Part shown: one piece after another, positions 28,304 to 33,475 of the stretch
Layout of the letters: each line of letters opens with the position of its first letter
Position numbering within the stretch: the stretch's first letter is position 1
Assembly: GCA_031268795.1 (NCBI GenBank)
Contig: JAIRWT010000008.1
Span: 66,487 to 130,486 of the forward strand
From: Puniceicoccales bacterium
GTDB taxonomy: Bacteria; Verrucomicrobiota; Verrucomicrobiia; Opitutales; JAIRLM01
DNA length: 64,000 nt
Direction of reading: 5' to 3'
Program-made: the position numbers and the translations under genes
The notes under the pieces: generated by a model
Seen by the model: the letters and a program-made list of their open reading frames with translations, nothing else
Told to the model about the DNA's origin: nothing
The model's database searches: none

Positions 28304-28990
28304 TTATCCTGGTACTACATGTTTTTGAAGGGATTTTTCAATGGCTCTAAGTTGTATGTCCAGACTTGCATCAACGGTACCAATTTCCGTCTCGATAATA
28401 CAATCATCCATCTTCAGGCGTCCATCGGCAACGACCTCCACAAAAGGGGTATCGTCGTCTCCTGCCTTTGTGCTTTCACTTGTACTTTCGCGTACGGCCT
28501 GGGCTTGCTCCGGGTTTACGCGCACGGTAACCTTTTTTTGATTGCGAACGGCGGACAGCGCATTGTGAACAATCGCGCGTAACCGTTGCGCATTATCCAT
28601 TTCTCCGATAATTCGCTTAACGGAGCGCATGACAATGTTGACGATGCTTTCCTGGAATTTTTCAAAACCTTCCATTCTCTTGGCGGCGACGGATATCATT
28701 AAATCGGAAAGTTCCTGTTTGCCATCGGCCATCCCGGCTGCATGGCCCTTTTTACGCTCCTCTTCAAAGGCGGCCTTGGATCCGCCAACAATTTTTTTAG
28801 CCTCCGCTTGGGCATCGCTGATGAGCTGTTTTGCCTTTGTTTCTGCAGCAGACAAGGACTCTCGAATTAATGTTTCCGTTTCATCCACAATCTCCCCAAC
28901 GGACCCGAAGGCCATAAATTCCTCGGCGTGTAAAATTTTCTTGCCGGGAACAATTTGTATTTCTTTGTCGTCTTTTTTAAGCATCCACAT
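28304..28990 (-). CDS. sctL: type III secretion stator protein SctL (YscL/FliH-like)
   Basis: FliH/YscL pattern: a charged helical N-half (AETKAKQLISDAQAEAKKIV), the C-terminal block VTVRVNPEQAQAV...ETEIGTVDASLDIQLRAIEKSL, and its position after sctK. Confidence 0.8.
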   Translation of the reverse strand: MWMLKKDDKEIQIVPGKKILHAEEFMAFGSVGEIVDETETLIRESLSAAETKAKQLISDAQAEAKKIVGGSKAAFEEERKKGHAAGMADGKQELSDLMISVAAKRMEGFEKFQESIVNIVMRSVKRIIGEMDNAQRLRAIVHNALSAVRNQKKVTVRVNPEQAQAVRESTSESTKAGDDDTPFVEVVADGRLKMDDCIIETEIGTVDASLDIQLRAIEKSLQKHVVPG

Positions 28991-29675
28991 GATCGCCTCC
29001 TTGAGTACTATCCGGACAATACCGGGTTAAGAGATTTTGCAAAAATGTCCAAATGCGGTCAGTGAAACGCTTCCGGAACTGTGGAAAGGCCCAATTTTCG
29101 CCGGGGCGGAATTTGAGCTGGAAACGCATGAGTAGCGCCTCTGGGAGATCGCACAGGCACGCTGCTACGCAAAATTTCCCCGTGATTATCACGCGCGTTG
29201 GTAGCGATTTCCCCGTGCCGGGAAGCAGATCCAGGCGAATGTTCTTTGGTCGGAAAAAAATAGCTTTCCGCAGGGCAAAGCTGTAGATTTCGTCCCCAAT
29301 TCCGCGGAGAAGTTCCTCACGTTCTTTTTTCAAAATAGTGTGCCTGACCTCATCGGCGCAGATGGCGACACCGGCAAATTTCGCAAGTCTACGAATTGTA
29401 TTCGCGGACGCATAGAGTAGCTGTTGCCTTGGAAGAAGTGGCGGGAGAACAATTTCGCGGTCTAAATTTAATTGTGTCAAAAGATAATCATTTAACGCAT
29501 CCCATCCGCGGCGGGTTTGCATGATTGCGCCCTGTACTTCAGCTTCAGGAATCCATTGGCGAAGGCGAACCGGATTCAGATAGCGAATGGGTTCGTAGAG
29601 GAACTGTAGCACCTTCGCCGCCAAAGGCATGTTCGACGTTAAAAAGGGCTCAAACTCTACGGCATTGGCACACAT
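28977..29675 (-). CDS. sctK: type III secretion protein SctK (YscK-like), assigned mainly by position
   Basis: 232 aa, lying between sctJ and sctL and overlapping sctL by 14 nt. The size and position match YscK. Sequence-level support is weak. Confidence 0.55.
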   Translation of the reverse strand: MCANAVEFEPFLTSNMPLAAKVLQFLYEPIRYLNPVRLRQWIPEAEVQGAIMQTRRGWDALNDYLLTQLNLDREIVLPPLLPRQQLLYASANTIRRLAKFAGVAICADEVRHTILKKEREELLRGIGDEIYSFALRKAIFFRPKNIRLDLLPGTGKSLPTRVIITGKFCVAACLCDLPEALLMRFQLKFRPGENWAFPQFRKRFTDRIWTFLQNLLTRYCPDSTQGGDHVDA

Positions 29676-29689
29676 TATATCCTCACTTG

Positions 29690-30550
29690 CTATTCCGCTT
29701 CCGGTTCAATTTTTTCTGGAGATTCGGCGGGTTTTTCTCCTTCGGAAGTTTCTTCCGGCACAATCGCAGAAGCTTTACGACGCTCCTTTTCATCCCGCTT
29801 GACGGTCATATAGTCGTAAAGAATTTTAGCGCCGACGAAGGATATGGCGGCAACGGCTGCTACCACAATGAGCAGAAGAAGCAGGAATACCCAAATGGAT
29901 GAATGGGTCATATGAATCCCTAGGAAATTAATCATCTGATTTCCCTCGGAAATTACATCGCTTACGACCGGAGCCTGAAATAAGGCAACGGAAACCTTGT
30001 CGTAGCTTAACCCCTCAATGCTGTTGGTAACTAGATTTTTAATATCGCGTACGGAGTCCTCTATATTCGTACCCTGTCGATAGAGGATAAAGACCGATGC
30101 GGAGGATGGCGTGATGGCTTCCGTGAAATTATTGGTTGTCGGAAGAACGATGTTCACTCTGGCGGTAACGACGCCAGTGATGTGGCTAATTGTCTCTGAA
30201 ATGCTCTCCGAAATGGCATACATGAAGCGGGCGCGCTCCTCCGTTGGCGAGGAAACCAATCCGGATTTCTGAAAAACCTTTCCCAGCGTGGAAAAATCAT
30301 CCCTTGGATAACCAAAGAGATTCAAAATCTCCACGGCGTTGGAAAAATCTGTGTTGGCAACCATAACCGTCCACATGTTTTCCGCCCCGGCAATTTTTCC
30401 GACTTCCATATTGCGCGTGCGCAAAATTGAAATCATTTCGTTTGCCTGCCGCTCTGAGACGTTGGAGTAGAGTGGAGACTTCCCGCAACCGGTTACCGCC
30501 AATAACAAGGCTCCCAGAGCCAAATTTCGAAGTTTTTTACCAATTTTCAT
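29690..30550 (-). CDS. sctJ: type III secretion inner-membrane ring lipoprotein SctJ
   Basis: Lipobox LAVTGC. Blocks ERQANEMISILR, AVEILNLFGYPR, GLVSSPTEERARFMYA and GVVTARVNIVLP track YscJ/PrgK closely. It ends with a C-terminal TM helix and a charged tail. Confidence 0.92.
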   Translation of the reverse strand: MKIGKKLRNLALGALLLAVTGCGKSPLYSNVSERQANEMISILRTRNMEVGKIAGAENMWTVMVANTDFSNAVEILNLFGYPRDDFSTLGKVFQKSGLVSSPTEERARFMYAISESISETISHITGVVTARVNIVLPTTNNFTEAITPSSASVFILYRQGTNIEDSVRDIKNLVTNSIEGLSYDKVSVALFQAPVVSDVISEGNQMINFLGIHMTHSSIWVFLLLLLIVVAAVAAISFVGAKILYDYMTVKRDEKERRKASAIVPEETSEGEKPAESPEKIEPEAE

Positions 30551-30553
30551 GTT

Positions 30554-31699: not shown

Positions 31700-31730
31700 A
31701 AAAAATCCCCCTAGTTAAGCGATTCCATTT

Positions 31731-31955
31731 TTAACCACGAAACCCCTTTACAACTCTTATCCCCGCCTCCAGGGATTTAACAAAGCGACTGTACCCATGG
31801 AATCGATGACTGTCAAGCCCTTCCCGTAGGATTTGCCGCACATTTCCAAGTTCTTGGTAAAAAAAATTTTCCACCTGCTTCCGTCGGGCCGGATCTCGCA
31901 GTTCCCGTTCCAGTGGAACCATGCTAATTCCAATTTTCGAACCCCTTGTGTTCAT
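31731..31955 (-). CDS. sctE: YscE-like needle co-chaperone
   Basis: 74 aa. ..REGLDSHRFHGYSRFVKSLEAGIRVV.. parallels YscE ..GGDAKQYQVWQRESKALESAIAII.. There is an ATGA start/stop overlap with sctD. Confidence 0.55.
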   Translation of the reverse strand: MNTRGSKIGISMVPLERELRDPARRKQVENFFYQELGNVRQILREGLDSHRFHGYSRFVKSLEAGIRVVKGFRG

Positions 31956-33331
31956 TGGAGTGCCTCCAGGCGCAAGGCAAGTTGTGTGCCATTGCGACTA
32001 AATTTTAATCCACTGGCATCGATGGCATCGATCCGCCATCCGCTAGCAAGAAAAGATCCTTCAAAGTATTTCTTCCCGTCGCGGGTCGTTACCCAACTCA
32101 TGCCCGAGGAGCCGATTGTGATGGCCTGGATTGGTTGCGCAAAGAGGCTATTTCCCGCCGGATCCGATTGGGCGGATTGGGACTGTACATCAAAGGTAAC
32201 GGGAATGATGTTGGCGAAAGTTTGGATGATATCCTCGGCCGCCATTCGCCATTTTTCCGCTAACAAAGCGCTCACCGCACCGCGAAATATCACTCGGCCT
32301 GATTCCGGGAAAACCGAAATGTGCTCGCGGAGCCCGTACTCATCCAGCGTCGTATGGGCAAGCGTTTGCACGCTTTCCGGTGTCATAATGTCGGAATTAA
32401 TTTTTTTCACTCCGGGGATGTCCTGATCGAGGCGGCCCCGGATGCGCTGCCATCGTTCCGTATTGTGCACATAGCCTGCAATGGAATACACGCCGGGCGT
32501 AATTGGGACTACACGAACGGCCCCATCAATGTCCCGGACAGAATCCTCGATAGCCTGAATGATCCGCTCTTCGCTGCGAACATTAAATTGGATGGCGGTT
32601 GTAATCTGTAATAATTCATTCTTCAGTGTCCGCAATTGGGCATTCGTTGGAACATAGCCCTCGACGATAATCCGTCCAGCTTCCACGCGCACATCAACGT
32701 TGGCCCGATGATCCAAATTGGCAATTTCTGCACGAATGATTTTTTCATTCTCGACGAGGTTGGGCTTATTTCTGTCCGGAAGAAGCATGAGAACGACAAG
32801 CCCGCCAACAAGCACTCCAATGCCGGAAAATATAATTCGTCGCAACTTCCTGCGCTCCATCTCCCCGACGGCCTTTTGGGTTGCTGTGGCGCTCCCGTCG
32901 ATGGACGCTGGGTCACCAGCCGTATCCGGTGGCATTTCCAGCGGTTTTTCAAGGGGAGGAGCGTCGGCGAGGGAGAGCGATGGCCATTCCGCGTCCGTTG
33001 CCCCGGCGACAATTTGCGTTGTTCCAATGGTCACAAACTGAAAGGCCGGAACATTCACAAATTCCGTGGTGACCAATTTCCCGTTGAGGAAAACTTGTCC
33101 GTCAAGTGGCTTCAAGTGCAGTTCCCCACCGTCGTAGCGGAAGGCTGCATGCTTTCGCGCCGCTAGCACATCCGCCAAAACCAGATCGCAGGAATCGTCA
33201 CTCCCGATGGTCACCTCCTGATCGTGTTCATCCAGCTCAACTTCCGCCCCCGCATGAGGGCCAGAGAGGAGCCGCAAAAGGAAGGAATGCGACGTTTTAC
33301 CTTCTTTCTCGATTGCCGTATCATCCATCAT
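31952..33331 (-). CDS. sctD: type III secretion inner-membrane ring protein SctD (FHA-like N-domain)
   Basis: N-terminal FHA-like domain (LLRLLSGPHAGAEVELD...VTIGSDDSCDLVL...HLKPLDGQVFLNGKLV), a single TM helix (IIFSGIGVLVGGLVVLMLL) and a periplasmic ring-building region. The start is either the ATG at 33331 or the GTG at 33367. Confidence 0.8.
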   Translation of the reverse strand: MMDDTAIEKEGKTSHSFLLRLLSGPHAGAEVELDEHDQEVTIGSDDSCDLVLADVLAARKHAAFRYDGGELHLKPLDGQVFLNGKLVTTEFVNVPAFQFVTIGTTQIVAGATDAEWPSLSLADAPPLEKPLEMPPDTAGDPASIDGSATATQKAVGEMERRKLRRIIFSGIGVLVGGLVVLMLLPDRNKPNLVENEKIIRAEIANLDHRANVDVRVEAGRIIVEGYVPTNAQLRTLKNELLQITTAIQFNVRSEERIIQAIEDSVRDIDGAVRVVPITPGVYSIAGYVHNTERWQRIRGRLDQDIPGVKKINSDIMTPESVQTLAHTTLDEYGLREHISVFPESGRVIFRGAVSALLAEKWRMAAEDIIQTFANIIPVTFDVQSQSAQSDPAGNSLFAQPIQAITIGSSGMSWVTTRDGKKYFEGSFLASGWRIDAIDASGLKFSRNGTQLALRLEALQ

Positions 33332-33475
33332 AAATAGATCTCTCGGCGAAGTTACGGATCTCAGCACGCAATGTCAACGTGGATTTGCGGTTGGTCAAAT
33401 CCAGTGTGAAATATGTTTTCGCTCTTTTCCGCTGGAAATCAACCATCCGATTTCCATTTCAATAAGAGAAAAAGC

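Follow-up and report, generated by a model that had tools for sequence, protein, structure and literature searches.

Complete but scattered non-flagellar type III secretion systems (NF-T3SSs) were described by Abby and Rocha only for Chlamydiales, Hamiltonella defensa and one Yersinia plasmid, with the chlamydial system occupying at least four loci, and it was proposed that constitutive expression relaxes the selection for clustering (PMC3459982). NF-T3SSs were also detected in Verrucomicrobia in this survey, where they were not listed among the scattered ones (PMC3459982). Our literature search returned no paper on a type III secretion system (T3SS) in Puniceicoccales or in termite-gut Verrucomicrobia; subscription journals were mostly outside its coverage, so this absence is unproven. 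Here, we analyse a stretch of 64,000 nucleotides (hereafter the window) from the metagenome-assembled genome (MAG) of a Puniceicoccales bacterium (assembly GCA_031268795.1, contig JAIRWT010000008.1, positions 66,487 to 130,486), which carries a block of eight T3SS genes, sctD to sctL, on its minus strand. We consider it highly probable that this block is one transcription unit of a complete and functional Ysc-like injectisome in a genome-reduced, obligately host-associated member of the Puniceicoccales, of a type known from termite guts; the other parts of the injectisome are encoded at five further loci. The parts of the machine are ordinary; what appears to be new is a further Ysc-like injectisome, whose host and genomic layout are both unusual.

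The eight open reading frames (ORFs) lie at 28304-33367 in the order SctD, E, F, G, I, J, K, L, which is the order of the Yersinia virC operon minus yscH, as a first-pass annotation of the window had proposed. The ORF listing reproduced the coordinates, gaps and overlaps given there exactly:

sctD, ORF 31952-33367 (471 aa), 31952-33331 when read from the conserved start, minus strand, inner-membrane ring protein with FHA-like cytoplasmic domain
sctE, 31731-31955, minus strand, 74 aa, needle co-chaperone of the YscE/AscE type
sctF, 31421-31699, minus strand, 92 aa, needle subunit
sctG, 30968-31414, minus strand, 148 aa, tetratricopeptide repeat (TPR) needle co-chaperone of the CdsG/YscG class, between sctF and sctI
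sctI, 30554-30952, minus strand, 132 aa, inner rod
sctJ, 29690-30550, minus strand, 286 aa, inner-membrane ring lipoprotein
sctK, 28977-29675, minus strand, 232 aa, sorting-platform adaptor
sctL, 28304-28990, minus strand, 228 aa, ATPase stator

The genes sctD and sctE overlap by 4 nt (ATGA at 31952-31955) and sctK and sctL by 14 nt (28977-28990), and the remaining intergenic gaps measure 31, 6, 15, 3 and 14 nt. The sctD frame is open up to a GTG at 33367, which falls within the conserved sctD promoter described below; an alignment of four species places the conserved start at the ATG at 33331. Because of the gene overlaps and the one conserved promoter, the eight genes are predicted to be co-transcribed as a single unit.

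The identity of the eight proteins was assessed by Pfam and NCBIfam profile searches against the curated cut-offs and, for the four small proteins, also by means of eight orthologues from related loci. SctD scored 129 bits with TIGR02500 (cut-off 86) and contains Yop-YscD_cpl (PF16697), FHA (PF00498) and YscD BON-like domains, in agreement with the FHA-like N-terminal domain recognised earlier. SctJ, with the lipobox LLAVTGC, reached 211.5 bits with TIGR02544 (cut-off 162), SctL 163.5 bits with NF005392 (cut-off 159) and 115 bits with TIGR02499 (cut-off 79), and SctK, which had been placed by position, 29.7 bits with PF06578 (YscK, cut-off 22). For SctI, the single sequence matched PF17001 with 30.6 bits (E 4.7e-7), i.e. 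under the cut-off of 32.4, and all eight orthologues matched the same family (best E 1.9e-9). The same pattern was obtained for SctF and PF09392, with 22.5 bits for the single sequence (cut-off 29.4; E 1.3e-4 across the full profile) and matches for eight of eight orthologues (best E 1e-7). The C-termini of both SctF and SctI are invariant among the orthologues; in SctF, which ends in TKTTQNIR, this applies to the motif K-x-x-QNIR. Searches of the PDB with the single sequences of SctE, SctF and SctG gave weak or irrelevant matches only, so that orthologue profiles were needed. The SctF profile then matched YscF over its full length (E 0.04), which was the sole needle protein among the matches listed and not the first of them, and the profile of SctE, which as a single sequence gave only a weak match, found AscE (3.3e-7), YscE (1.9e-5 and 1.7e-4) and PscE (0.05). 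SctG matched the NCBIfam model of CdsG (E 3.8e-9; eight of eight orthologues, best 1.5e-12), and its AlphaFold (AF2) model (pLDDT 87) shows an all-helical TPR fold. The top matches in a search with this fold were T3SS TPR chaperones in general (AcrH, SycD, IpgC, PcrH), with neither YscG nor PscG returned, and the fold alone cannot separate SctG from a class II chaperone. Taken together, profiles, orthologue tests and SctG model agree with all eight assignments of the first-pass annotation: the eight ORFs are the intact SctD, E, F, G, I, J, K and L of an injectisome.

SctJ and FliF fall into one Pfam family, as do SctL and FliH, and many relatives with larger genomes in the order are flagellated, which would fit flagellar genes of the FliF/FliH/FliG type or a flagellum-derived export system. 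In the reassignment check, SctJ scored only 42 bits with the FliF model (cut-off 130) and SctL remained below the cut-off of every FliH model, while the injectisome equivalogs were above theirs. Needle, inner rod, secretin, SctD, SctK, SctX and SctY are all present, and the genome encodes one homologue each of SctV, SctU and SctR, i.e. a single export gate with no second FlhA or FlhB, and therefore no flagellum. The chance that the genes are flagellar is thus next to negligible.

The genome comprises 951,705 bp (about 0.95 Mb) in 15 contigs, with an estimated contamination of 0.1% and a uniform GC content of 47-49% on all contigs. The block had been described as detached from the rest of the machine, and a search of the whole genome for the remaining sct genes recovered SctC, N, V, U, R, S, T and Q, all intact and all at other loci:

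sctN-O-P-Q1-Q2-R, contig C12, 92.8-98.1 kb
sctS-T-U, contig C12, 18.3-20.5 kb
tyeA-sycN-sctX-sctY-sctV, contig C14, 67.1-70.9 kb
yscB-like gene and sctC, contig C11, 15.9-18.3 kb, CesT-family chaperone in the YscB position, then sctC
putative translocon locus, contig C8 (the contig of the window), 196339-205991, minus strand, about 66 kb past the 3' end of the window

SctV scored 906 bits, SctN 608, SctU 408, SctC 369 and SctR 260, and SctC, N, R, S, T, U and V were all above the curated cut-offs and without stop codons. TyeA (40.1 bits, cut-off 21.1) and SctX (TIGR02502, 67.3 bits, cut-off 30) exceeded their cut-offs as well; SctY matched NF052415 over its full length with 60.2 bits (cut-off 70). 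SctQ is split into two ORFs (C12:95484-97419), the first of 400 aa with a trace SpoA/FliN match and the second of 232 aa with a strong FliN_C match and an acidic N-terminal half, a division that recalls HrcQa/HrcQb and differs from the single YscQ. Right after sctR, in the spot where sctS would be expected, lies an ORF of 417 aa (C12:98296-99549) with a hydrophobic N-terminus and a long stretch of acidic PE/LE-rich repeats, which may encode a secreted or membrane protein.

In a MAG of 15 contigs, an apparent dispersal might stem from binning or assembly, with the pieces belonging to a contiguous island of another organism. All six loci, however, lie at least 10 kb from the contig ends amid housekeeping genes, and the dispersal is therefore real. 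Further evidence against an artefact comes from the low contamination and even GC content, from the sctN-R and sctS-U loci lying 73 kb apart on C12 and the D-to-L block and translocon locus about 100 kb apart on C8, from the recurrence of the same flanks in independent MAGs of different samples, and from a closed single-contig relative that is equally dispersed. We regard the artefact as extremely improbable.

The translocon locus encodes, in this order, an ORF of 468 aa, an LcrG-like ORF of 127 aa (PF07216, E 0.02), two ORFs of 857 and 778 aa, an LcrH/SycD chaperone (TIGR02552, 4.5e-19) and two hydrophobic proteins, one SseC-like (439 aa, E 0.005) and one SseD-like (326 aa, E 8.5e-9). The matches of the chaperone and of the SseC-like and SseD-like proteins are below the curated cut-offs, yet the three genes stand in the order lcrH-yopB-yopD. 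The 857-aa and 778-aa ORFs are paralogous, occupy the LcrV position and have no family match; their C-termini recall that of the needle, and they may represent giant tip proteins. When the gatekeeper, tip and translocator candidates encoded in the intact island of a 4.4 Mb relative were used as tblastn queries, the class II chaperone alone was recovered in the present genome, the proteins being too divergent.

SctX/SctY, TyeA, SycN, YscO, YscK and YscE are characteristic of the Ysc family, and the X/Y pair is Ysc-specific. All of them, including a protein of the YscE type, are present in this genome. Among solved structures in the PDB, SctV was most similar to the LcrD-type protein 7alw (826 bits, compared to 468 for SsaV), and its C-terminal domain scored 410 bits with YscV, 314 with the chlamydial protein, 173 with MxiA, 167 with InvA and 153 with EscV. 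SctN matched 9e58, an entry named just 'Type 3 secretion system ATPase', with 531 bits, ahead of EscN (433 bits) and SsaN. In a tree of SctN from the fetched loci, all Puniceicoccales and one Desulfovibrionaceae sequence formed a clade with 100/98 support, with Burkholderiales and Rhizobiales-type systems outside of it; the closest SctN from another phylum was that of Desulfovibrionaceae with 69% identity. The genes within every piece are ordered as in the Yersinia virC, virB and virA/lcrGVH-yopBD operons. These results suggest that the system is Ysc-like in the broad sense, within a Ysc/Desulfovibrionales neighbourhood, and not chlamydial even though SctG matches the CdsG model best.

Compared to the Ysc family proper (Yersinia Ysc, Pseudomonas Psc, Aeromonas Asc and Vibrio Vcr), gene set and order within the pieces are the same, namely (B)-C, D-E-F-G-I-J-K-L, N-O-P-Q-R, S-T-U, tyeA-sycN-X-Y-V and lcrG..lcrH with the putative translocators, and the E/G needle co-chaperones, the X/Y pair, the AscE/YscE matches of SctE and the LcrD-type protein as best solved match of SctV are points in common. 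Unlike the Ysc systems, which form one island or plasmid region in proteobacteria, the system described here is chromosomal, spread over six loci amid housekeeping genes, and hosted by a verrucomicrobial symbiont; it lacks yscH, yscA and a detectable YopN domain, its SctQ is split, its SctG is nearer to the CdsG model, and two very large ORFs stand where LcrV would be expected. The Desulfovibrionaceae system (the 'Desulfo' family of PMC3459982) shares the order C-D..J..L-N-O..R-S, but is contiguous and belongs to another phylum. Hamiltonella defensa, an intracellular symbiont from a different phylum, also has a complete NF-T3SS in scattered form (PMC3459982), which represents an independent event.

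To examine the history of this layout, all T3SS proteins were compared with related loci by tblastn, and the complete genomes of 40 relatives were searched for J, V, N, U, C and D. Among public genomes, the nearest loci that encode SctJ all came from MAGs labelled Puniceicoccales, with isolate codes typical of termite-gut metagenome series, and the putative host is likely a termite-gut protist. In the relative with a 4.4 Mb genome (G014), the system forms one island, in which D..G..J..L-N..R-S-T-U is a single run and C and V lie 8-12 kb away on the same contig. Genes D to U are contiguous in G023 (1.8 Mb), and D to R up to the contig end in G027 (1.9 Mb), where sctU is on another contig; V and C are elsewhere in both genomes. 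Along the closed genome of G016 (0.88 Mb), the pieces follow one another as V (101 kb), J-K-L-N-O-P (261-264 kb), D (375 kb), U (528 kb) and C (773 kb), and the layout of G020 (0.8 Mb) is similar, with J-K-L-N-O-P likewise separated from D, U, V and C. The open frame around the secretin match of G023 (C1:50526-52103) measures 1,691 aa, far above the usual length of about 630 aa, and this secretin may be fused or extended.

The GTDB family of the window holds 13 genomes of five genera with sizes of 0.7-1.4 Mb, all 13 of which carry the system. Larger-genome families of the order gave mostly flagellar-type matches only, and the injectisome therefore tracks the reduced-genome lineages. Within the family, genus g3 has the same D-to-L block with an insertion of 1.5 kb between I and J, facing a convergent N-to-R operon, and in genera g2 and g4 D and J are on different contigs, with J-K-L alone. 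The g3 insertion (L022 / L060, G009, 7230-8770) contains an ORF of 487 aa between sctI and sctJ, with a TTGACA-N17-AAACTT box preceding sctJ; it may be a snapshot of the split into D..I and J-K-L that is seen in other genera. In another g3 genome (G005:C48:3000-8111), sctV and sctD are 1.7 kb apart on the same strand, a join found in no other genome examined.

At three related loci (L024, L028 and L029), D-E-F-G-I-J-K-L is directly followed by N. By this comparison, D-E-F-G-I-J-K-L is the ancestral order, and the stand-alone block is best described as the 5' part of a D-to-U operon that was cut after sctL. Relatives with a contiguous arrangement show the fragmentation to be secondary within the order. 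The first-pass annotation had read the block, in comparison with Chlamydia, as an architecture that was either intermediate or distinct. The gene order turned out not to be distinct, being simply the ancestral one kept after the cut behind sctL, and with a Ysc-like system, as judged by the SctV scores given above, the block is no link to Chlamydia either. 'Intermediate' does hold within the clade, in which sister genera and families have added a cut between sctD and sctJ and the window shows the less fragmented state.

The alternative that a chlamydial-type system was inherited from a common ancestor of the Planctomycetes-Verrucomicrobia-Chlamydiae (PVC) superphylum, with homologous scattering, has some appeal: Verrucomicrobia belong to this superphylum together with Chlamydiae, scattered loci are also a feature of Chlamydia (PMC3459982), SctG best matches the CdsG model and SctE weakly matches DUF5398. 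The resemblance to the chlamydial T3SS (Cds) extends to the small genome and the obligate host association of a PVC bacterium, to vertically inherited genes dispersed among housekeeping genes, to needle chaperones of the E/G type and, in the sister genera only, to the separation of D..I from J-K-L. By similarity ranking, however, the system belongs to another family, with SctV and SctN much closer to Ysc-type proteins; SctX/SctY, TyeA/SycN and YscO/YscK are present, and outside the phylum, the most closely related system is one from Desulfovibrionaceae. The larger-genome relatives keep a contiguous island, so that the scattering arose inside the order, and the pieces D-L, N-R, S-U, X-Y-V and C are delimited by break points that differ from those of the chlamydial loci, as does locus composition, with D to L still joined here. 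Homology with the chlamydial arrangement is accordingly improbable; the resemblance to chlamydial scattering is convergent.

As the first-pass annotation had supposed, sctD shares a divergent promoter region with trxB on the opposite strand. The following promoter-like elements were found ahead of the T3SS operons, the last four being species-invariant footprints:

putative sigma-70-like promoter of the sctD operon, 33349-33377, minus strand, -35 box TTGACA at 33377-33372, 17-nt spacer, -10 box TAACTT at 33354-33349
footprint ahead of sctN, C12:92751-92790, AAAAAGTAACTTGCCAA
footprint ahead of the yscB-like gene, C11:18262-18290, TTGCCA-N17-GGTAACTT
footprint ahead of sctS, C12:~18270-18320, other conserved boxes
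footprint ahead of tyeA, C14:~67030-67075, other conserved boxes

In four species of the genus, the two hexamers upstream of sctD do not vary, unlike the intergenic DNA around them, and the extended motif CGTTGACA-N17-TAACTT has a single match in the genome, at sctD; the conserved boxes thus probably act as its promoter. The footprint ahead of sctN is retained although the gene upstream of sctN differs among species. Invariant boxes of the form TTGACA/TTGCCA/TTGCGA-N16-17-(G)TAACTT precede sctD, the yscB-like gene and sctN, and the unusual -10 sequence GTAACTT is common to the sctD, sctN and yscB-like/sctC operons. Of the 70 copies of GTAACTT in the genome, 11 are near gene starts and four of these at T3SS genes. 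Our first idea was a dedicated T3SS box. In other genera, the J-K-L blocks have their own TTGACA-N16/17-xAxCTT boxes, and differing -10 sequences (AAACTT, TAAATT, ATACTT or TACACT) stand behind the same perfect -35. Ordinary sigma-70-type promoters, one per fragment, are at least as likely, and a dedicated regulon box is possible without being required. A sigma-54 promoter upstream of sctD was also considered, with an NtrC-type activator encoded near sctV, and was dropped by eye on account of a wrong GG-to-GC spacing. This activator, identified from its ORF translation, has 433 aa and is encoded at C14:71942-73243, about 1 kb downstream of sctV.

The neighbours of the block, trxB on one side and an ORFan on the other, were those named in the first-pass annotation, and one further T3SS-related gene lies in the window:

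trxB, 33476-34423, plus strand, housekeeping flank divergent from sctD (TIGR01292, 353.7 bits, cut-off 343)
orf555, 26630-28297, plus strand, ORF of 555 aa, convergent with sctL, stop codons 6 nt apart
class II chaperone gene, 43670-44416, plus strand, LcrH/SycD-like T3SS accessory (TIGR02552, E 1.7e-11, below cut-off)

Next to sctD, trxB is also found in loci L012-L015 and L063. The complete arrangement of divergent trxB, D-E-F-G-I-J-K-L and convergent orf555 recurs in three congeners, and genus g5 shares trxB and the eight genes; a match to orf555 was not found in the second genus that keeps trxB beside D to L. The product of orf555 has no Pfam or NCBIfam match. At the same place in the three congeners, it is only 25-32% identical, whereas the adjacent sct genes reach 66-90%, and we infer from this that orf555 is a fast-evolving gene and a candidate for a secreted protein.

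With regard to function, the operon would supply the two inner-membrane rings (SctD and SctJ), the inner rod (SctI) and the needle SctF along with its cytoplasmic co-chaperones SctE and SctG, which would block polymerisation before export, while SctK and SctL would be cytoplasmic parts of the sorting platform that dock the ATPase. The machine is predicted to assemble and to secrete. Several points weigh against this reading of the block as a unit of a complete and functional Ysc-like injectisome. The MAG is 92.8% complete and in 15 contigs, so that it may lack one or two pieces, and the assembly does not fix the long-range order of the loci. As single sequences, SctE, F, G and I are each below the curated cut-offs, and the needle-tip protein was guessed from position alone. 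No YopN/HrpJ gatekeeper domain (PF07201) was found genome-wide at E<=0.1, with TyeA, SycN and the YscB-like chaperone being present; the gatekeeper may be too divergent, or it may lie in the roughly 7% of the genome missing from the MAG. A generic sigma-70 consensus promoter and terminator scan of the region gave results at chance level, and the Ysc-like placement was derived from score ranking and gene content, not from a tree with named reference systems. Lastly, dS is saturated, and the dN/dS values of 0.03-0.22 for all eight genes (Nei-Gojobori method, against three congeners; 0.05-0.09 for sctD and about 0.03 for sctJ) are therefore rough, with dN far below dS in every case.

By these substitution patterns, the operon is shown to be under purifying selection, and this bears on whether it could be the decaying and no longer functional remnant of a secretion system. 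An isolated block, surrounded by housekeeping genes in so small a genome, and the undetected YopN-type gatekeeper would be in line with decay. The core genes are all present and uninterrupted, the eight genes of the block are intact in at least four species at the low dN/dS given above, the system is kept in every genome of the family despite sizes under 1.4 Mb, and SctU and SctN have intact NPTH autocleavage and Walker A motifs, respectively. A remnant is thus very improbable, and we retain the reading of a working injectisome.

In the scenario that we propose, the ancestor of the clade would have possessed a Ysc-type island with a single operon from sctD to sctU. Genome reduction and rearrangement would then have cut this operon and its neighbours at different points in each lineage, in the present genome between C and D, between L and N and between R and S, and each piece would have retained the order of its genes and would now carry a sigma-70-type promoter of its own, with a consensus -35 box. 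More broadly, the small-genome Puniceicoccales of termite guts may represent a second PVC lineage that, independently of Chlamydiae, has a vertically inherited 'housekeeping' Ysc-type injectisome, and it may record a stepwise break-up of the operon (between L and N, between D and J, between R and S and between C and D), with each new 5' end having its own sigma-70-type promoter (TTGACA-N16/17-xAxCTT); the -10 sequence GTAACTT of three operons could mark a T3SS regulon. We put this wider proposal forward tentatively and rate its chances at slightly under even.

Starting from a T3SS of another family, a PVC phylum other than Chlamydiae would thus have arrived independently at a scattered injectisome, with living relatives that show the contiguous, the partly broken and the fully broken state. 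By means of comparative genomics and transcriptomics, this clade would allow testing of the long-standing idea that the loss of specific regulation in obligately host-associated bacteria relaxes the selection for clustering. For the organisms themselves, the system makes it likely that these verrucomicrobia of about 1 Mb manipulate a eukaryotic host, either from within its cells or attached to them, and the main interest lies in an injectisome that appears to have been kept throughout the clade during genome reduction while breaking apart stepwise.

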